DNA from: a virus
Direction: 5' to 3' (one strand)
Virus record (IMG/VR): IMGVR_UViG_3300009545_000018
Location: 51,224 to 115,223 of that record
DNA length: 64,000 nucleotides
Shown here piece by piece: positions 4,324-62,486 of this stretch. The position numbers were made by a program, and so were the translations under genes. Position 1 is the first letter of the stretch; every line of letters starts with the position of its first letter. The notes beneath the pieces were generated by a model. It ran no database searches and was not told the DNA's origin. It worked only from the letters and a program-made list of their open reading frames with translations.

Positions 4324-4680
4324 ATGTTTGATAGAGAACTGCTTAAAAAAGAATATTATTCTAAGTTAAATCTTAATGGTGGAGAATTATATTTAAACTC
4401 TTCTTTTCAAAAAGATTTTAATAAATATTATGGATATATGTCTATCGTATATAAAAGTTTTAGTATAGAGGTATTAAGAGTTCCACATTTATTTAAAATA
4501 AATAACTTCAAAATTAAAGTTTGGGATCATACAAAAATATATTATAATCATTTTGCGGGAGATTATTATAAGTGTCATTTAGAAATTATCCATATACCAA
4601 AATCTCATTTATTAAATGAGCTTCAAAAGCAAATTGATTTCTTTCATAGAAGATATATTAAACTAGCAGCTTTTACATGA
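4324..4680 (+). CDS. small protein, KLKAF-tail family (tail KLAAFT)
   Basis: ORF track. Confidence 0.55.
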   Translation: MFDRELLKKEYYSKLNLNGGELYLNSSFQKDFNKYYGYMSIVYKSFSIEVLRVPHLFKINNFKIKVWDHTKIYYNHFAGDYYKCHLEIIHIPKSHLLNELQKQIDFFHRRYIKLAAFT

Positions 4681-4994
4681 GTGATGTTTTCAAAAAATCA
4701 TATTATAATCTTTTAGATTTAAAAGGTGGCAAAATAGATATTTGTGACTTTAACATTAAATATTTTAATAACTATAATAATTATGTTACCATACTAAATA
4801 TTAATTATGAAAAATACTATATATCATTAACTCATCAAACGAATATGATCTTCGCAGTTCATACTTTATTTTTTAATTCTTTTGATACTCCTAGTAGTAC
4901 TTATAATGTAAACAAATATAGTGTACTTACAACATTGCAAAACACTATTAATTTTAATTATAAAAAATATATAAAACTGTCAGTATTTACATAA
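4677..4994 (+). CDS. small protein, KLKAF-tail family (tail KLSVFT)
   Basis: ORF track. Confidence 0.55.
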   Translation: MSDVFKKSYYNLLDLKGGKIDICDFNIKYFNNYNNYVTILNINYEKYYISLTHQTNMIFAVHTLFFNSFDTPSSTYNVNKYSVLTTLQNTINFNYKKYIKLSVFT

Positions 4995-5242
4995 CCTATG
5001 AATGAATTAAAAGTATTACAAGATCAAATAATTAATTTTAGTTTCGATAAATTCAATTGATCAACGTACTTATACTAAAAGTATGTTCATTGAATATGAA
5101 TTATTTGCTTTATATTTTGTATTTGATGAATTAAATAATTTACTTAAAGCAAATACGGCTTATATTTCAGACTTATATCATTATGAAGAATGGACAGAAA
5201 TTAAAAAATTTTCCTCCATAGAAGATATACAAAATATTATAG

Positions 5243-10896: not shown

Positions 10897-11293
10897 TATT
10901 TATATTATCATAGCGACTATTCTTTGGGGAGTGGGAGCCATTTTTACTAAGGTAGGCGCTAACAATTTACATCCTTTAATGTTAGCATTAGTGGCAGAAT
11001 TGTTCTATATAATATTTGTACCTTTAGGTATTTGGTTTACTAAAACTCCAATTCAAATGAACACTACGGGATTTATTTTTGGATTTATTTCGGCGGCATG
11101 TGTTGGGGCAGGGTCCTTAGCTTATTACTTTGCTTTGCAGAAGGGTGCTGCGGGCACCATTGCAGCAGCAACAAGTGTATACCCTGTGTTAACTTTAATT
11201 ATTTCCGTTGCAATTTTAAACGAAGAAATAAGTTTAAGAAAAATAATTGGCTGCCTTCTTGCTATTATTTCTGTTATTATTATTTCAAAATGA
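10886..11293 (+). CDS. small integral membrane protein, EamA/DMT-like (4 TM)
   Basis: Four hydrophobic helices, Gly-rich. Confidence 0.45.
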   Translation: MSTNIYIIIATILWGVGAIFTKVGANNLHPLMLALVAELFYIIFVPLGIWFTKTPIQMNTTGFIFGFISAACVGAGSLAYYFALQKGAAGTIAAATSVYPVLTLIISVAILNEEISLRKIIGCLLAIISVIIISK

Positions 11294-24982: not shown

Positions 24983-25456
24983 ATGAAGTATTCAAAAGAA
25001 TTACTATCTAAACTAGTTTCTGAATGTACTACTGTTGCAGAGCTAATGAGAAAGTTAGGACTCCAACAATCTGGAGGAACACATTCATTTTTAACTAAAA
25101 GAATAAAATCATTTAGTATTGACACATCTCATTTTGTTGGTTCTGCTTTTAATGCGGGACTAAATCATGTAGGCGGTCCAGAGAAACTATGTTCAACAGA
25201 TGTTTTAGTCCTAGATAGGCTTAACGGTCAAAGAGAGAAATCTTTTAGATTAAAGAGAGCATTATTAGAATCTAACATAAAAGAAGAGTGTGAACAATGT
25301 GGTGTGAGTACTATTTGGAATAATAAACCAATTACACTTCATATTGATCATAGAGATGGTAATGGTCTAAATAATTGTATAGAAAATTTAAGGTTCCTTT
25401 GTCCTAATTGTCATTCTCAAACGGACAATTATGGATCTAAAAATATTGGAAAATAA
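24983..25456 (+). CDS. HNH homing endonuclease
   Basis: C-terminal HIDHRDGNGLNN...NLRFLCPNCH HNH motif; directly upstream of lysS with ATGA overlap. Confidence 0.7.
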   Translation: MKYSKELLSKLVSECTTVAELMRKLGLQQSGGTHSFLTKRIKSFSIDTSHFVGSAFNAGLNHVGGPEKLCSTDVLVLDRLNGQREKSFRLKRALLESNIKEECEQCGVSTIWNNKPITLHIDHRDGNGLNNCIENLRFLCPNCHSQTDNYGSKNIGK

Positions 25457-27075
25457 TGTCAGAAGAATCCCTTATAGAAACCCGTCGCCAGAAGCATATT
25501 AAAGCTAATGGTGGAACTTACCCCATTGCTAATGATAGTAATTCAATTGATGATATCATTGGGCATAATTTAATTATGCGGTTTAAACAACCAGAATCTG
25601 ACATTAAAACAACTATCTGCTTCTCTGATTTAGAAGGAGAAGAACTCGTTAAGGTTCATGGCAGACTAACCAGTATCAGAAATACTGGCGGCATTACTTT
25701 TCTTAAAATTAAAGATAATACTGGTGCAATACAAATAATTGTTTCAAAAAAAGAATTATCTAATTATAAAGATTTAGCTAATTTAGATTTAGGCGACATT
25801 GTTGAAGTCGAAGGTAAAGTGGTTTTTTCTAAGACCAAAGAATTATCGGTTCTTATGTCTAGCTGGATCTTATTGTCTAAAGCTATTAGACCTTTACCAG
25901 AAAAATATCATGGCATTACAGATGTAGAATTAAAATATCGCAAGAGATATCTAGATTTAATTTGTTCGGATGAGTCAAGAGAGATCTTTAAATTAAGGTC
26001 ACTTGTTATTTCTTCCATAAGAAATTTTTTAATTCAGGACGGTTTTATGGAAGTAGAGACTCCAACATTAAATATAGTTAATAGTGGGGCTAATGCCAAA
26101 CCATTCCAGACACACCACAATTCTTTAGATATGGATCTTAATTTGAGAATTGCTCCGGAGCTTAATCTCAAGCGATTAATTGTGGGAGGATTTGATAAAG
26201 TATTTGAAATTGGTAAGAATTTTCGTAATGAAGGGCTGTCTACTAGACATAATCCAGAATTTACTATGCTTGAATTTTATGAGGCTTATAGTAATTTTGG
26301 TAATTTAATAGATAAAACAATGCGGCTTTTCAATTATATTGAGGGTGATTTAGAAACTTACTATCAAAGTAAACCAGAAGAAAAAGTATTATTTGATAAA
26401 TGGAAAACTGCTCGCCCCTTTTCTTTTTCCTTTTGGAAAGAATTACCTATGTGGGATTTAGTACTTCATGCTTGTAATAAAGCAGAAATATTAATTCATC
26501 ACGGAATTCATCCTCTAGTAAAAGACAGCCCAACAGATGGTGCTCCTTTATTAGAAAGAATTAATTTAAATAATGAAAGATTATTAAAAATTGATTGGAA
26601 AGATTTGTTAGACAAATTAAATCTGGAAAAAGATAATGGTCAAATAATAGGATTATTATTTGAATATCTTGCTGAACCATTTCTTACTGAAGATTATAGA
26701 ACTGCTGATGGTACACATTCTTTGCCAGTCATTGTAACGCAATTCCCCACAGAGCTTTGTCCTTTAGCCAGAGCTTATGATAAAGCCCCAACATTATGTG
26801 AGCGTTTTGAGCTTTACATAGATGGCAAAGAAATTGCTAATGCCTTTCAAGAACTTAATGATCCAGTAGAACAAAGAAAAAGGTTTGATGAACAGCTAGT
26901 AAGCAATCAAAGAGATGCTATGGATATCGACAATGATTACATTGAAGCTTTAGAATATGGCATGCCTCCAACTGTTGGTTTGGGTCTAGGAATAGATCGT
27001 TTGGTAATGTTATTAACTAATTCATCATCCATTAAAGATGTAATTTTATTTCCTACAATGAAGCCATTAAAGTAA
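25456..27075 (+). CDS. lysS: lysyl-tRNA synthetase, class II
   Basis: Class II motif 2 FRNEGLSTRHNPEFTMLEFYEAY, motif 3 GLGIDRLVMLLT, N-terminal OB anticodon-binding region. Confidence 0.85.
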   Translation: MSEESLIETRRQKHIKANGGTYPIANDSNSIDDIIGHNLIMRFKQPESDIKTTICFSDLEGEELVKVHGRLTSIRNTGGITFLKIKDNTGAIQIIVSKKELSNYKDLANLDLGDIVEVEGKVVFSKTKELSVLMSSWILLSKAIRPLPEKYHGITDVELKYRKRYLDLICSDESREIFKLRSLVISSIRNFLIQDGFMEVETPTLNIVNSGANAKPFQTHHNSLDMDLNLRIAPELNLKRLIVGGFDKVFEIGKNFRNEGLSTRHNPEFTMLEFYEAYSNFGNLIDKTMRLFNYIEGDLETYYQSKPEEKVLFDKWKTARPFSFSFWKELPMWDLVLHACNKAEILIHHGIHPLVKDSPTDGAPLLERINLNNERLLKIDWKDLLDKLNLEKDNGQIIGLLFEYLAEPFLTEDYRTADGTHSLPVIVTQFPTELCPLARAYDKAPTLCERFELYIDGKEIANAFQELNDPVEQRKRFDEQLVSNQRDAMDIDNDYIEALEYGMPPTVGLGLGIDRLVMLLTNSSSIKDVILFPTMKPLK

Positions 27076-27082
27076 AATAATT

Positions 27083-28141
27083 ATGACTGAAATTTTATTA
27101 GCAAAACCAAAATTATCTTCTGATTTTATTGATTCTTCCGTTGGCGAGCCTTACATTATTCGCAAGCATCTCTTTGATATGTTTACATGGGACGAGGATG
27201 TTGGAGCTGTTGATCTATCATATCCTTTTCCTCAAGGATATGAGCCGTTAGTTAAGATGTTGGAAGATAAACATCAAGCTCCAGTTATTATAACAAATGG
27301 CGCAAAACAAGCCTTGGGTGGGGCTTTTTACTCTCTACAAAAAATGGGTAAAATTAGAATGGGAATGAGAAAGCCATATTGGGCACTCATTCCTCCACTA
27401 GCAGAAATGCATGGAATTGTTCCGACTTTTCCAAAACAAGATGTGGATTGTCACCCAAATTTAACAATAGCTAAATTTAAGGATGACTTTAATCCAAAAG
27501 ATTTAGATAGTTATTTATGTATAAATCCTAACAATCCTGATGGTTGGGTATCAAATGATATAGAAAATTTGTATTTATTATTTGAGAGTCACAAGATTCC
27601 ATTCATATTTGATGGCGCTTATTATCATGATATGTATATGCAAGGCACATATCCTAAACATAAGCAACTTGGTGACGTTCAAATTTATACTTTTTCTAAG
27701 TCTTTAGGTTTATCTGGACTTAGATTAGGGTACGCTGTTTGTCATAATACAGAGTTTTATAAACACATGTCTGCTTATATGGAAGCTATGACAGTTGGAG
27801 TATCAACTATATCTCAAAGATATCTTTATAATTTACTTCAATCTATGAATCAGGATCCGGAACTAGTTCGTTCTTTTGAAGAAAGATGTTTTCTTTCTTT
27901 GTTAGAAAACAAAAAAGAATGTTTAAATATTAATCCGGAAGTTTTGGAATTGCCAAGTAATTTTACAGATATTCCAGGAATGTTTGGATGGTGTAAAGTA
28001 GGACCTAAAGCTGATTTTAATAAAGCTAAAATTCATTTTGTTGGTGGTAAGTTATTTGGTGCTGAGGATATGATACGAATAAATTTAGCTTTTGAAAATC
28101 ATGTAATCAAAGATATTGTAAATAGATTGAATTCATTATGA
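27083..28141 (+). CDS. PLP-dependent aminotransferase, class I/II fold
   Basis: Lys-containing FSKSLGLSGLRLGY block typical of fold-type I aminotransferases. Confidence 0.55.
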   Translation: MTEILLAKPKLSSDFIDSSVGEPYIIRKHLFDMFTWDEDVGAVDLSYPFPQGYEPLVKMLEDKHQAPVIITNGAKQALGGAFYSLQKMGKIRMGMRKPYWALIPPLAEMHGIVPTFPKQDVDCHPNLTIAKFKDDFNPKDLDSYLCINPNNPDGWVSNDIENLYLLFESHKIPFIFDGAYYHDMYMQGTYPKHKQLGDVQIYTFSKSLGLSGLRLGYAVCHNTEFYKHMSAYMEAMTVGVSTISQRYLYNLLQSMNQDPELVRSFEERCFLSLLENKKECLNINPEVLELPSNFTDIPGMFGWCKVGPKADFNKAKIHFVGGKLFGAEDMIRINLAFENHVIKDIVNRLNSL

Positions 28142-28681: not shown

Positions 28682-29055
28682 TGATTATTGTTATAATACT
28701 GTTGATGCTTTTTTGCCTAGCGGGTTTTCAAATATATCAAAGTAAACCTAAGCCAACTAAACCATTAGTTAAATTTAAAGTTGATGATATAAGTGTCACT
28801 TTATTTTTTGAAAAGGGACAAGAATTACATAAAAAATTTGAAGGTAGAGTATATAAAACATGTTATCCAACAGCGCACCGTGTGTTTTATTATTACGAAA
28901 CTGTTAAAGCAGAAGATACTATGTTGCGCTGGTTACAGAAAAATAAAGAAAGCGGATTTGTTGCCATTGATGATTCTACTCTATTACCAGTAGAACAAAT
29001 TACTAATATTAATATAGATAAATCTTCCAGAGAAATTGAGTTAGAAGCATTATGA
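28651..29055 (+). CDS. N-terminally membrane-anchored protein
   Basis: N-terminal TM. Confidence 0.45.
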   Translation: MFLGGKVFKLMIIVIILLMLFCLAGFQIYQSKPKPTKPLVKFKVDDISVTLFFEKGQELHKKFEGRVYKTCYPTAHRVFYYYETVKAEDTMLRWLQKNKESGFVAIDDSTLLPVEQITNINIDKSSREIELEAL

Positions 29056-29116
29056 AAATTTTGTTTATTATTATAATTCTTTCTGCATTTTATTTTATAT
29101 TGATGAAATCAGGAAA

Positions 29117-29740
29117 ATGGAATCAATGAAACAAAAAATCAGAACCATTCCTAATCTAGCTGATACTTCTCCTGCACATCTTTCTGCTATAGAAAAAGGA
29201 TTAGAACATTTTGGATCTTGGCAGTATAATGTAGAAGATAGATTTAAATCTTTGGCTCAAGAAGAAATTAAAGCAGAATTAAGGCGCACAGCTTTTCCAT
29301 ATGCTGTATTATTTGAACACCTCATTGGAGATTTTAATTTAGGAACTGGTATTAGAAATGCTAATGCCTTTAATGCCAGAGAAGTATTTTATCTCGGAAA
29401 TAAAAAATGGGATAAGCGAGGAGCTACTGGAGTATATAATTATACTGATATCACCTTTCTATCTACCATAGATGAAGTAATAGAGTTGCAATCTAAATAT
29501 ACTTTTATTGGAGTAGATAATGTTCCTGGAAGTATTCCGCTAAATGAAATAGAGTATCAACCAAACACTCTTTTTGTTTTTGGAGAAGAGGGGGTAGGTT
29601 TAACTCCTGCGATGCAATCTTTTTGTAAAAACATTGTTTACATTAAACAATACGGATCAGTAAGATCTTTGAATGTTGGAACTGCTAGTGGTATTATAAT
29701 GCATGATTTTGTCACCAGATTCAAACCACACAATTTATAA
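29117..29740 (+). CDS. SpoU/TrmH-family RNA 2'-O-methyltransferase-like
   Basis: VFGEEGVGLTP ... SLNVGTASGI motifs resemble SPOUT motifs 2/3. Confidence 0.5.
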   Translation: MESMKQKIRTIPNLADTSPAHLSAIEKGLEHFGSWQYNVEDRFKSLAQEEIKAELRRTAFPYAVLFEHLIGDFNLGTGIRNANAFNAREVFYLGNKKWDKRGATGVYNYTDITFLSTIDEVIELQSKYTFIGVDNVPGSIPLNEIEYQPNTLFVFGEEGVGLTPAMQSFCKNIVYIKQYGSVRSLNVGTASGIIMHDFVTRFKPHNL

Positions 29741-30244
29741 TTTTAAAAATAGGCAGCCCTTGACAATTTATTTATAGAAATAATGTTATAGGTGGCAATT
29801 ATGCCTAGTCTTTGCAATGCAGAATAACTGTCTGCTAGTGAGGTTTAAGCTCATGAAAACGGGAGTAGTTACCCGAAGAAGTAGCCGGCTCGGCTGTTCC
29901 AAAAGAACAATAGTTTGCTAACAAGGATAGCGATACAATTATCATAATAAGTCTTATGAAAGTCAAAACGAACTTTTGATATAAGTAAGAACTAAAAGGT
30001 ATGTAGAAGCGGAACACTTAGATACATAGGAATAAGGTGTAACAGCTTTATTCCGCTGAAACAAGTTAAACCGTATCCGTAATTTTTAATATGTCCAAAT
30101 TAATATATACAACAATACTTTCATTTATTACGCTATACTTACTCAATGCATTATGGCTCTTTGTGGTATACAAATGTAATATATTTCATTTAGATTTTGT
30201 ATGGGGACCATTTGGTGCTCTAATTTTATTCCAATCTGTTATGA
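29741..30244 (+). ncRNA. about 500-nt ORF-free, locally GC-enriched region; candidate structured RNA or long leader
   Basis: No ORF >60 aa on the + strand; GC-rich tracts (GGGAGTAGTTACCCGAAGAAGTAGCCGGCTCGGCTG); TTGACA motif at 29759. Confidence 0.3.
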
Positions 30245-30694
30245 TTGGAATTGGTCGTAGCATATAGGTTTAATATGAGACACGCTGCTGTTATGTTAAT
30301 TATAAACAGAGAAGGTAAAATTTTAGCCGTTTCTCGCCGTTATGACTCATCTAAGTTCGGACTTCCAGGCGGCAAACTTGAGGAAGGCGAATCTACCTCT
30401 GATGCTGCCCGAAGAGAAACCCTAGAGGAAACAGGAGTAAAAGTTACCGCCTGTGACTTAATTTATACTAGAGTTGAAAAGAAACATAATGATAGTGGGG
30501 AAGATTTCAATACACATTGTTTTTATGCTACTGAATTTGATGATTCAGGATTAGTAAAATCTTCAGAAGAAGGAACGGTAAAGTGGATGAGTTCTTCAGA
30601 ATTAACTTCTATGGAACACGGGGCTTTTCCGGATTATAATTCTAAAACAATAGAATCGTTTAAATTAAAATACCCAGAGATTAAAATATCATAA
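30245..30694 (+). CDS. Nudix hydrolase
   Basis: Nudix box GLPGGKLEEGESTSDAARRETLEETGV; alternative start at 30275. Confidence 0.75.
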   Translation: MELVVAYRFNMRHAAVMLIINREGKILAVSRRYDSSKFGLPGGKLEEGESTSDAARRETLEETGVKVTACDLIYTRVEKKHNDSGEDFNTHCFYATEFDDSGLVKSSEEGTVKWMSSSELTSMEHGAFPDYNSKTIESFKLKYPEIKIS

Positions 30695-30714
30695 TAAAGT
30701 TAGGAATAATTAAA

Positions 30715-31338
30715 ATGAAATTAAATAGTATTGTTTGTGCGTTTATGATTGCTACTTGCGCTATTACATCAACTGGTTGTGGTCTTTTAGATCAAGGTGT
30801 GCAAAAATATGACACTTTAGTAGATAAAGATGAAAAGTGTAACCAGGCTTGGTCAGACTATGAGGCACAATTACAAAGACGTTCTGATATGATTCCAAAT
30901 TTAGTAGCTGTTGTAAAAGGTTCTGCTGCACATGAGCATAGTACTCTTAAAGATGTAATTGATGCTAGGGCTAGTGCCACTCAAGTTAAATTAAATGCTG
31001 ATGATTTAACCGATCCAGCTAAGGTTGAAGCATTTAAAAATGCTCAAGCAGGTTTGACGGGCGCGTTAAGTAAGCTTATGAGCATTCAAGAACAGTATCC
31101 AACACTTCAAGCTAATGCTCAATTCCATGATTTAATGATCCAAATGGAAGGAACAGAAAATCGCATTTTGACAGCACGTCGAGATTATAATACATCAGTA
31201 CAAAGTTTTAACTTAGAGTTACGACGTGTTAGTGGAAAAGTGGTTAATCCATTGACTGGCAGGGAATTTAAACCACGAGTTTATTTTTCTGCTGATGCTG
31301 ATGCTAAGACCGCTCCCAAAGTTTCTTTTGATAAATAA
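30715..31338 (+). CDS. LemA-family lipoprotein
   Basis: Lipobox STGC; LemA hallmark RRDYNTSVQSFN...FP region. Confidence 0.65.
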   Translation: MKLNSIVCAFMIATCAITSTGCGLLDQGVQKYDTLVDKDEKCNQAWSDYEAQLQRRSDMIPNLVAVVKGSAAHEHSTLKDVIDARASATQVKLNADDLTDPAKVEAFKNAQAGLTGALSKLMSIQEQYPTLQANAQFHDLMIQMEGTENRILTARRDYNTSVQSFNLELRRVSGKVVNPLTGREFKPRVYFSADADAKTAPKVSFDK

Positions 31339-34586: not shown

Positions 34587-34588
34587 TA

Positions 34589-34861
34589 ATGGAAAACCCA
34601 GCAACGTGGAATCAATGTATTAGAATATTAAATAATAGTCTCAATTATGGAAATGATTCTATGTTAACGACAGATAAAGTTTTATCAATTTTAATTAATA
34701 ATAATTTTCTTATACCTGAAGATAAAAATAATCAAAAAATTATTGATGCTATTGACAAGTCTATAGCAAGTCATCAATATGCTATTGATAATCAATGTTG
34801 CGGGAATAGTATTGGAAACATAATTTATTTTAATTTGAAACCTTTAGGTGTTGTAGAATAA
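34589..34861 (+). CDS. hypothetical protein
   Basis: Start moved to the ATG just after the upstream stop (TAATAATG); the track start is inside the previous gene. Confidence 0.45.
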   Translation: MENPATWNQCIRILNNSLNYGNDSMLTTDKVLSILINNNFLIPEDKNNQKIIDAIDKSIASHQYAIDNQCCGNSIGNIIYFNLKPLGVVE

Positions 34862-34952
34862 CTAATGTCGAGATGGCGAAAAGGTAAACGCGGAAGAATT
34901 ATGGGTATAATACATAATTCATCTGGGAAACTGTAATTATACTACATAACCC

Positions 34953-50838: not shown

Positions 50839-51674
50839 TGATTAAAAGAAATGGTATTGAAATTAAGACTGCCCAAGCTCCAAATATAGTAGCAGCAAAA
50901 GATACTTTAAATATTCTTAAGAATAAAAATTATCTTGTTAAAGATAAGATCATAGATATTTCAGTGGCATTAGATAATTCAATTAAAAATACTAAGTTAT
51001 ATTTGCCAGAAGATTGTTTTAATAGTAAAAATAATTTAATTAAACCTACTATAGAGGTAACAAATGAAACTACTACCTCTGCTGGGTTAAGATTATTAAA
51101 TAGTGGTTTAGAAAATATTGTAGCTTTGAATTTTGCCTCAGCTAGAAATGTTGGGGGCGGATTTTTAGCGGGGGCAGTTGCCCAAGAAGAAGATTTGTGT
51201 CGGTGTTCTGGATTATATCTTTGTATTAAAAGCAAACCTATCTTTTATAATAAAAACATTTTATGTGATGATACTTTCTATACTAATCATATTATTTACT
51301 CACCCAATGTTCCTTTCTTTCGTAATGATAATCTAGATCTTTTAGAAGAGATATTCCACATTTCTATTATTTCTGCGCCCGCACCTAATGTTAGAGCTAT
51401 GGAGAATGTTGATGAAGATAATTTAAGAAGCATATTAGAAATAAGGGCAGCTAGAATTTTACAGATTGCTATTGAAAATAATCATGAAAATATTATCTTA
51501 GGAGCTTGGGGCTGTGGTGCTTTTGGTAATGATTCTAAAATGATAATTGAGGTTTTTCAAAAGGTATTAAATAGATATCCTCATTTCAAACATGTTTGTT
51601 TTGCCGTCTTTGATAATAAAATAAATGCCCCTATTTTCAATGCATTTAAAGAAGCATTTGAAAATAATGAATGA
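50838..51674 (+). CDS. bacterial-type poly(ADP-ribose) glycohydrolase (macrodomain, DUF2263-like)
   Basis: PARG signature GGG-x7-QEE (VGGGFLAGAVAQEE) in a macrodomain-sized protein. Confidence 0.65.
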   Translation: MIKRNGIEIKTAQAPNIVAAKDTLNILKNKNYLVKDKIIDISVALDNSIKNTKLYLPEDCFNSKNNLIKPTIEVTNETTTSAGLRLLNSGLENIVALNFASARNVGGGFLAGAVAQEEDLCRCSGLYLCIKSKPIFYNKNILCDDTFYTNHIIYSPNVPFFRNDNLDLLEEIFHISIISAPAPNVRAMENVDEDNLRSILEIRAARILQIAIENNHENIILGAWGCGAFGNDSKMIIEVFQKVLNRYPHFKHVCFAVFDNKINAPIFNAFKEAFENNE

Positions 51675-56989: not shown

Positions 56990-57079
56990 GGGGAAGTAGC
57001 TCAGCCGGCCAGAGCGCTTTACTGTTTTATAAAACGAATAGTGAAGAGGTCGATGGTTCAAATCCATCCTTCCCCACCA
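56990..57079 (+). tRNA. tRNA-like gene (90 nt, CCA encoded) with canonical acceptor, D and T arms but a 20-nt anticodon loop
   Basis: GGGGAAG/CTTCCCC acceptor, D arm GCTC-AGCCGGCCA-GAGC, T arm GATGG-TTCAAAT-CCATC, variable AGGTC; anticodon stem CTTTA/TGAAG enclosing CTGTTTTATAAAACGAATAG. Confidence 0.5.
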
Positions 57080-62107: not shown

Positions 62108-62486
62108 AAAACTTTAGATGAATGCCGCAATGGAATACATATACAACCGATAGCTGAATGTCGCAAGACATTCAATATCTCCGATTTCATAAAAGAGATA
62201 TGAACCAACCTAAAGGAATTCCTATAAGGATAAACTATGTGACTGACAAACTTGAAGCCAGTTAAAGCTCAAGTCCTCTATGGTATTATTAGGATAAGAT
62301 ATACTGTGCTATTGGATAAAATTAATCGCACTTTCTATTGCATTCTTGTCATCTAATTAACTTTTCATTTAAATGAATGCCGATTCGGGAATACATTAAA
62401 CACAAAGATACTGCAGCATGTGCCAGGCTAATCCACATGTACCTTAGGAGTACTCAGGGTAAAGTGTACCGACTTCTCAATCACCT

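Follow-up and report, generated by a model that had tools for sequence, protein, structure and literature searches.

GOLLD and ROOL are 'ornate' large RNAs of phages and prophages that have been studied by cryo-electron microscopy (PMC12286853). They were discovered as long intergenic stretches of raised GC content, and they are phage-borne and non-coding, lie near tRNA genes, are built from many helices, pseudoknots and loop-loop contacts, and have no known function. The same features recur in an RNA that we describe here from a huge phage. It is encoded in a 64,000-nucleotide (nt) stretch of virus record IMGVR_UViG_3300009545_000018 (positions 51,224 to 115,223 of that record; hereafter the window), between a gene for a SpoU-type methyltransferase and a gene for a Nudix hydrolase, and comparison among relatives demonstrated that positions 29816-30081 of the + strand encode a conserved structured RNA of about 270 nt. 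GOLLD and ROOL differ from it in size (about 580-800 nt), in the absence of any match between their covariance models and this RNA, and in that the contact between its loops L1 and L3 may be intramolecular. Membership in either family was rejected on the missing model match and on length, about 270 nt against more than 500 nt.

A second comparison is offered by the raiA motif RNA and similar orphans, which, like the present RNA, are about 200-270 nt long, contain multiple pseudoknots and are consistently found upstream of one gene family. They differ from the huge-phage RNA in that no sequence or model similarity links the two (Rfam was negative). The raiA motif is found in Firmicutes and Actinobacteria, whereas the hosts of the RNA described here are huge phages. 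This RNA is a new family without detectable relation to catalogued ones, although the broad kind, an orphan complex-folded phage RNA or a riboswitch-like leader, is already known. Literature searches returned no description of this SpoU-Nudix RNA.

Relatives of the locus were collected through the SpoU protein, for which hundreds of homologs with 58-73% identity were found on contigs of up to 486 kb. Thirty of these were aligned (alignment A1) as a search anchor, and loci were fetched with this alignment from viral contigs (L002-L081), metagenomes (L097-L176) and species genomes (L177-L209). A pattern scan of the viral contigs with the single SpoU sequence of the window gave no match, whereas the alignment-based scan succeeded. 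The window itself belongs to a contig of about 399 kb, and a sequence identical to it was present in Logan run SRR6056501 (locus L001). With the intergenic gap as query, nhmmer reported + strand matches right after SpoU in eight loci (E 1e-35 to 2e-7), and the profile search brought together 35 distinct sequences with E values down to 1e-75 (window match 29818-30088). These 35 copies, out of 38 distinct sequences known, constituted alignment A4, from which covariance model R1 was built. The model found the element in 41 loci on related huge-phage contigs of about 270-500 kb, scoring 140-282 bits for 39 full-length copies and 245 and 102 bits for two end-truncated ones; the window copy obtained 211.9 bits (29810-30096, E 2e-55). 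Since SpoU was the search anchor for all loci, its linkage to the RNA is partly built into the search, and all copies come from one syntenic block.

The fold deduced from the 35 copies comprised 60 base pairs in 14 helices, of which 11 were nested and three were tertiary pairings. Across the 60 pairs, 95.3% of the cells were paired, against 33-48% when the 3' partners were slid by one to three columns, and each helix was paired in 89-100% of cases. Changes on both sides of a pair, i.e. compensatory changes, were found for 48 of the 60 pairs, and none of 500 shuffles attained any of the observed measures. No firmer support for a structure could be expected from a comparison of 35 sequences. RNAalifold predicted 46 pairs (28 compensatory) from nine sequences and 49 nested pairs (40 compensatory) from all 35. 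Even between the window copy and its closest relative (L210), fresh compensatory changes were seen in P4, P7c and P10. Mean identity per alignment column was 63%, the SpoU proteins of the same phages being 50-70% identical, and 37 of 170 unpaired consensus positions were conserved in at least 90% of the copies. G.U cells outnumbered A.C cells (109 vs 22), which indicates that the + strand is the folded one. The initial annotation had listed a novel structured non-coding RNA among its candidates for the gap. This proposal was borne out by the conservation, the compensatory changes and the pairing level of 95%; conservation in relatives and covariation, whose absence had been named beforehand as grounds for refutation, were both looked for and both present. 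As regards extent, the element does lie inside the 504-nt interval originally outlined, but it takes up only about 270 nt of it.

The three tertiary contacts were found by reading the alignment together with a screen of column pairs, and were then verified row by row. They consist of a kissing interaction between loops L1 and L3 (PK1), a pairing of L2 with J3/4 (PK2) and a pairing of the L6 loop with the 3' tail (PK3), all of them covarying. An all-against-all screen for column covariation was dominated by phylogenetic noise, and just these three pseudoknots withstood scrutiny. The RNA core, delimited by nhmmer, R1, alignment A4 and pair statistics, occupies 29816-30081, beginning with the lead-in on the 5' side of P1 and ending with the 3' tail. 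Hairpin P1 (29819-29835, GCAGAA/GUCUGC; helix 1) was 94% paired with double changes in four of its six pairs. Its loop L1 (UAAC, 29825-29828) meets loop L3 (GUUA, 29868-29871) of hairpin P3 (29860-29875, CGGG/CCCG; helix 5), which was 99% paired and whose column pair 56-69 occurred as UA 15, CG 14, GC 3 and AU 2 times. PK1 itself (helix 2) was 96% paired with covariation at three of four pairs, and its variants were UAGC/GCUA, UAAC/GUUA (the window), UAAU/AUUA, UGAU/AUCA and GGUA/UACC.

A loop-loop contact of this type calls to mind the pRNA of phage phi29, which is likewise phage-encoded and in which a four-base pairing between loops changes in sequence among relatives while keeping its complementarity. 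The loops of pRNA, however, pair between molecules to form a ring on the portal, and its gene lies at the genome end of small podoviruses. The huge-phage RNA has two further pseudoknots and a different helix plan, and its sequence is compatible with loop pairing within as well as between molecules. Membership in the pRNA family was rejected, as no Rfam pRNA match was obtained and the neighbouring genes are not packaging genes.

Hairpin P2 (29838-29854; helix 3) was paired in all copies. Its loop provides one strand of PK2 (29844-29846 with 29880-29882; helix 4), which was 91% paired with all three pairs covarying; column pair 38-77 was 100% canonical with four pair types, and variants included UGG/CCA, AAGAU/AUCUU and AGG/CCU. 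In the window copy PK2 is weak, with two pairs. P4 (29884-29894) and the variable P5 (29896-29908), i.e. helices 6 and 7 at 29884-29908, were 98% and 94% paired with covariation at all pairs; window and L210 differed there by GCC/GGC against GCU/AGC, and P5 was missing from L012 and L013. P6 (29915-29933; helix 8, 98% paired) exposes the loop AGGA (29924-29927), which pairs with UCCG (30076-30079) of the 3' tail AUCCGUA (30075-30081). This third pseudoknot (helix 9; AAGGA with UCCUU in its general form) was 98% paired and covarying, with the variants AAGGA/UCCUU, AAAGA/UCUU, AAGGGA/UCCCUU and GGGGA/UCCC. Conservation stops at the tail, the sequence beyond it not being conserved among copies.

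The centre of the molecule is occupied by P7 (29934-30005; helices 10 and 11, 92% and 89% paired), a three-tier hairpin including P7b (29953-29957 with 29985-29989) and P7c (29963-29965 with 29977-29979). Its internal loop GAAA/AUAA was invariant, while a variable outer stem was visible only in the single-sequence folds of all 35 copies. The 3' domain (30009-30074) is made of P8 (GCGG/CCGU), P9 (ACUU/AAGU) and hairpin P10 (helices 12-14; 97%, 93% and 91% paired); double changes were recorded in 11 of its 12 pairs, and its joining strands, AGAUAACAACACA and GCnGAAAC in the consensus, were highly conserved. No covariation supported pairing of the 5' leader with the RNA body, and no helix joined the 5' and 3' ends. 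Several likenesses noted by eye, to the hairpin ribozyme, to T-loops and to tetraloop receptors, were not upheld by models or by variant sequences. A short open reading frame (ORF) beginning at an AUG after P6 (Shine-Dalgarno (SD)-like AAGGA, 6 nt, AUG) was also discarded, as it is not conserved and the window has no AUG at this place. In some copies, P6 followed by UGUUUU was flagged as terminator-like (L013 5098-5115); the U run was not conserved and the window reads GAUACAAUU.

The gap that houses the RNA measures 504-534 nt, from the end of SpoU at 29740 to the Nudix start, which is either the ATG at 30275 or an extended TTG start at 30245. It was rightly singled out for its size: on a crude map of the window's ORFs, 132 spacers had a median length of 1.5 nt, and four other spacers exceeded 300 nt, two of them being tRNA clusters. 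The absence of + strand ORFs over 60 amino acids (aa) was literally correct, but a hydrophobic ORF of 58 aa (30091-30267), outside the RNA, occupies the 3' part of the gap, so that the truly non-coding stretch is limited to about 350 nt (29741-30090). The GC enrichment applied locally, to the core and its 5' part, and not to the whole interval, whose GC content was just 0.327, the window mean being 0.305. In the conserved core, taken as 29816-30087, it was 0.364, which ranks within the top 12% of segments of that size, and in the first 120 nt of the core it reached 0.433 (top 3%); the latter include the string that the initial annotation had quoted as an example, corresponding to hairpins P3 and P4 and the beginning of P5. 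Long spacers poor in ORFs and devoid of tRNA genes were also noted at 62108-62486, 34587-34952, 1995-2194 and 10897-11097 (GC 0.36, 0.28, 0.36 and 0.33, respectively), and none of these four matched Rfam at gathering score.

It is hardly credible that the stretch represents protein-coding sequence or a decayed gene remnant on either strand. A 60-codon ORF with a GTG start does exist on the minus strand (29835-30017), and every copy contains stop-free stretches of 43-87 codons in some frame, but these stretches differed in strand, frame and position among copies. Variation showed no three-base periodicity (0.69/0.66/0.59) and followed compensatory base-pair changes, and indels were not multiples of three. 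Furthermore, a decaying remnant would not hold a mean column identity of 63% next to SpoU proteins that are only 50-70% identical. The remnant of a deleted gene, another of the early candidates, was accordingly dropped: the copies share neither a reading frame nor a periodicity of variation, and what selection maintains is the base pairing. A gene masked by stop-codon recoding was ruled out, since each of the three + frames of 29741-30090 is interrupted by all three stop codon types.

The RNA was also compared with known classes by means of the 4227 models of Rfam 15, applied to the window at gathering score, to 29600-30400 at E<=10 and to eight homologous loci at E<=1. At gathering score the whole window yielded 11 tRNAs, all away from the gap; in 29600-30400 the best match reached 22 bits against a threshold of 55, and in the eight loci nothing was reported at the element. 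ARAGORN and Rfam agreed with the initial annotation that the gap bears no obvious hallmarks of tRNA, transfer-messenger RNA (tmRNA) or RNase P RNA. Within the window ARAGORN found no tmRNA, and the sole Rfam line of this kind was alpha_tmRNA with 10.8 bits (E 0.46) on the minus strand. Huge phages do carry tmRNA and translation-related genes, which gives some background credit to the idea of a divergent member of a known family (tmRNA, RNase P RNA, signal recognition particle RNA, 6S, group I intron, GOLLD/ROOL or phi29 pRNA) overlooked by the models in an AT-rich phage. The motifs UGAAAGU and ACACAGA superficially recall conserved regions CR-I and CR-V of RNase P RNA, and the covarying 4-bp loop-loop contact recalls pRNA. 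In RNase P RNA, the long-range helix P4 is formed by CR-I (GGAAAGUCC) and CR-V (ACAGAA..GGCUUA), and P1 joins the 5' and 3' ends. In the present RNA, by contrast, the GAAAGU-like motif sits in the local, covariation-supported hairpin P7 and a terminal helix is lacking; RNase P RNA, for which no model match was found, was rejected on these grounds. Together with the negative Rfam searches at permissive thresholds, the negative ARAGORN result and the lack of a tRNA-like domain, this makes a divergent known family very improbable.

The distribution of the RNA was narrow. In GenBank phages, blastn with 29000-31000 returned just a weak match to LemA, in two records of Acinetobacter phages. Scanning viral contigs for DNA patterns retrieved contigs already known plus chance matches within coding sequence, and a scan of the viral contigs anchored on Nudix revealed no contig beyond those known and no copy outside the SpoU-Nudix block. 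The majority motif had no match in 185,579 species genomes. Among 33 SpoU-anchored loci in cellular genomes the RNA was found in one only (L177 3674-3962, 197 bits, SpoU 63% identical), on a 19-kb contig (CAZTUN010000023.1) of an 'uncultured Rickettsiales' metagenome-assembled genome. In all likelihood the contig comes from a phage and was placed in this bin on account of its composition, and as a hint to the host it is weak at best. As far as sampled, the family is therefore confined to one huge-phage clade and one locus. It is worth noting that two loci of related huge phages with SpoU proteins 58-59% identical (L005 and L006) kept both SpoU and Nudix but carried, where the RNA would be (4605-5161 and 4610-4957, respectively), either two small ORFs of 85 and 67 aa or a single one of 115 aa, indicating a clade-specific gain or loss of the RNA.

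The gene order was SpoU, zero to two small ORFs, the RNA, an optional 106-aa ORF, Nudix, a 97-aa ORF and LemA. In the window, SpoU is a SPOUT-class 2'-O-methyltransferase gene (29117-29740, + strand; Pfam SpoU_methylase, E 1.7e-21) scoring below every NCBIfam equivalog cut-off, and the MutT-like Nudix hydrolase gene spans 30275-30694 on the same strand (Pfam NUDIX, E 1.2e-18; PHROG 1198 MutT/NUDIX, E 1.3e-27). SpoU, which also served as search anchor, was upstream of the RNA in all loci, and among the 29 loci in which a gene downstream of the RNA could be classified, 27 had Nudix in first or second place after it; when flanking proteins were clustered in search of a constant partner, these two alone recurred. 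The first downstream ORF varied, being the 58-aa ORF, a member of the 106-aa family, Nudix, an ORF of 61-64 aa or a member of a 242-aa family. No Pfam, NCBIfam or PHROG match was obtained for the 106-aa family, the 97-aa family or the 58-aa ORF, and the sole match of the 242-aa family was PHROG 2554, of unknown function. The 242-aa protein follows the RNA in one lineage (L007, L108, L117 and L122) in which no Nudix was seen as far as the downstream sequence extends, L108 ending too soon to tell; its RNAs still scored 140-190 bits and displayed lineage-specific compensatory changes in PK2 and PK3. The 58-aa ORF was absent from L210, in which Nudix follows the RNA directly, and was unrelated to the 58-aa ORF found at the same place in L004. 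Judging from these comparisons, it is a private, lineage-specific insertion between RNA and Nudix, and its predicted product is probably a small membrane protein restricted to that lineage. Upstream of SpoU, the window encodes a class II aminoacyl-tRNA synthetase of the Asp/Asn/Lys type (25456-27075) and an aminotransferase (27083-28141), a translation-related neighbourhood.

Transcription signals were recognised on the 5' side. The TTGACA noticed earlier at the edge of the gap (29761-29766) is real and not a chance occurrence, for in 24 of the 35 copies TTGAC was aligned at a distance of 40-59 nt upstream of P1. It represents the -35 hexamer, conserved in these 24 relatives, of the sigma-70-type promoter from which the RNA is transcribed. 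The typical layout in relatives was an A-rich tract, TTGAC, about 16 nt, and TATATT (or TTATAT at the equivalent place); the promoter scan (10/12) reported TTGACT-16-TATATT in L115 and TTGACC-16-TATATT in L013. In the window a candidate -10 hexamer, TGTTAT (29785-29790), follows after an 18-nt spacer; it was picked by eye, is weak in this copy, and was not listed by the scan, whose rule demands an A at position 2. In two thirds of the members this promoter is placed so as to initiate transcription 15-25 nt ahead of the first helix. The remaining 11 of the 35 copies have no promoter and are intercistronic, and in L007, L108, L117 and L122 the RNA begins at the SpoU stop codon. In relatives, for example at L013 4950-4995 and L115 3700-3745, the -35 TTGAC is bracketed by a GC-rich dyad, with AAAAATT ahead of the dyad and T-rich sequence behind it. 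By eye, this resembles either a terminator that serves the upstream gene and overlaps the promoter of the RNA, or an UP element; no flag was raised by the scan. No intrinsic terminator was found after the 3' tail in any copy and the next ORF starts 16-65 nt past the AUCC tail, so the primary transcript is expected to run on into the next genes.

As to function, our preference goes, with a confidence slightly short of even, to a discrete, compact RNA acting in trans. A stable RNA would be released from the polycistronic transcript by processing through host factors or by itself, its 3' end would be tucked into, and protected by, the L6/tail pseudoknot, and it might then act as a protein-bound or catalytic particle rather than as a switch specific to Nudix. 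Trans action was preferred because size and complexity exceed those of any single riboswitch aptamer known to us, with 37 of 170 unpaired positions so highly conserved, because the first downstream ORF varies, because the RNA persists under selection in the L007 lineage where Nudix is gone, and because SpoU-Nudix pairs without the RNA exist (L005, L006). The neighbours (class II aminoacyl-tRNA synthetase, SpoU, Nudix and the 13 tRNAs of the window) point to RNA or translation metabolism as the area in which it most probably acts. A precedent can be seen in the species 1 and 2 RNAs of phage T4, stable molecules of about 140 nt with tRNA-like ends that are processed from transcripts of the tRNA region and whose function is unknown. 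As in T4, a non-tRNA RNA without its own terminator is located among translation-related genes and would be released by processing; the tRNA-like ends of the T4 species have, however, no counterpart in the huge-phage RNA according to ARAGORN. To our knowledge, RNAs combining several pseudoknots with dozens of invariant unpaired nucleotides are rare, and almost all of them proved to be ribozymes, riboswitches or cores of ribonucleoproteins.

Several observations weigh against trans action. With no terminator and an ORF 16-65 nt past the tail, the RNA is physically a 5' leader or an intercistronic segment, as is classically the case for cis-regulators, and in nearly all classifiable loci Nudix comes first or second after it. 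In addition, all copies are in one syntenic block found through the SpoU anchor, and the discrete transcript, its processing and its partner protein are putative.

The terminator-free layout and the near-constant Nudix gene speak for a riboswitch-like, cis-acting leader of the (106-aa ORF)-Nudix-LemA operon that would sense a ligand or a protein. The initial annotation had already raised a regulatory leader for Nudix, and the promoter-RNA-ORF layout keeps it a live alternative; it concerns the mode of action of the same RNA, not a separate object. A covarying aptamer-like fold, conserved junction nucleotides and a same-strand position upstream of an ORF, all typical of riboswitches, were found here. 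The ZTP, SAM-II and preQ1 riboswitches resemble the huge-phage RNA in their position in the 5' untranslated region, in a covarying 3'-tail pseudoknot close to the start codon and in their conserved junction nucleotides, but the latter is three to five times larger, its ribosome-binding site lies outside the conserved fold, and it has neither a terminator nor an Rfam match. Its final structural element, the covarying pseudoknot between an SD-like loop and an anti-SD-like tail, suggests how a switch might operate, although we regard this mechanism as rather doubtful: the closed L6(AAGGA)/tail(UCCUU) pseudoknot would leave the ribosome-binding site free, whereas the open, pyrimidine-rich tail would pair with the purine-rich site 10-40 nt downstream and block translation. 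In the minimum-energy folds of tail plus spacer, the tail did pair with a downstream AGG or GGA in about 10 of 30 copies (AUCCU/AGGAU in L161, AUCC/GGAU in L004 and, by eye, AUCC/GGAU in L211), but the hairpins were weak (0 to -4.6 kcal/mol), any SD sequence is by definition complementary to a UCCU tail, and the window copy shows no SD-like motif ahead of the next ORF. If Nudix is the output, the ligand of such a switch would most naturally be a nucleoside-diphosphate derivative.

Other data also fit poorly with a leader. We know of no single riboswitch aptamer that reaches about 270 nt with 14 helices. The first downstream ORF is variable, the L007 lineage has no Nudix where the downstream sequence extends, one third of the copies are promoterless inside a polycistron, L005 and L006 have the same Nudix without the RNA, and the gene association is inseparable from synteny in one block of one clade. 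On balance, a cis-acting leader appeared somewhat unlikely.

Another possible explanation is an element of processing or stability, that is, a new large self-cleaving ribozyme separating cistrons or a nuclease-resistant knot protecting the flanking mRNA. The same element stands at the transcript start in some copies and between ORFs in others (24 with and 11 without promoter), its multi-pseudoknot fold is compact with both ends held in tertiary structure, no terminator follows, and the intergenic regions of phages often contain small self-cleaving ribozymes. No Rfam ribozyme model matched and no catalytic core was recognisable, however, and a simple stabiliser would not require 37 highly conserved unpaired positions, so that this explanation is improbable.

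Whichever mode applies, the RNA could found a new functional class in this one clade of 270-500-kb phages, an outcome that we hold as possible and no more than that: it might be a large natural ribozyme, an unusually large riboswitch for a nucleotide-derived signal at the head of a Nudix-led operon, or a particle self-assembled through its L1 and L3 loops. Its 35 distinct aligned sequences, 60 supported pairs, well-defined limits and promoter make it ready for work at the bench. It extends the set of huge-phage genes for translation and RNA metabolism by a non-coding one, and its position, with an RNA 2'-O-methyltransferase gene on one side and a Nudix hydrolase gene on the other, hints at a link with RNA modification or nucleotide signalling in the course of infection. 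Its interest would be more modest if it were a mere mRNA leader with a structural role.

The 13 tRNA genes of the window were predicted by ARAGORN between 9433 and 63919. One tRNA on the + strand (56990-57079) obtained 59.5 bits with Rfam and was reported by ARAGORN as 'tRNA-???' with a four-base 'gttt'; it carries a 16-nt insertion in the region of the anticodon loop and may be intron-bearing or otherwise unusual.

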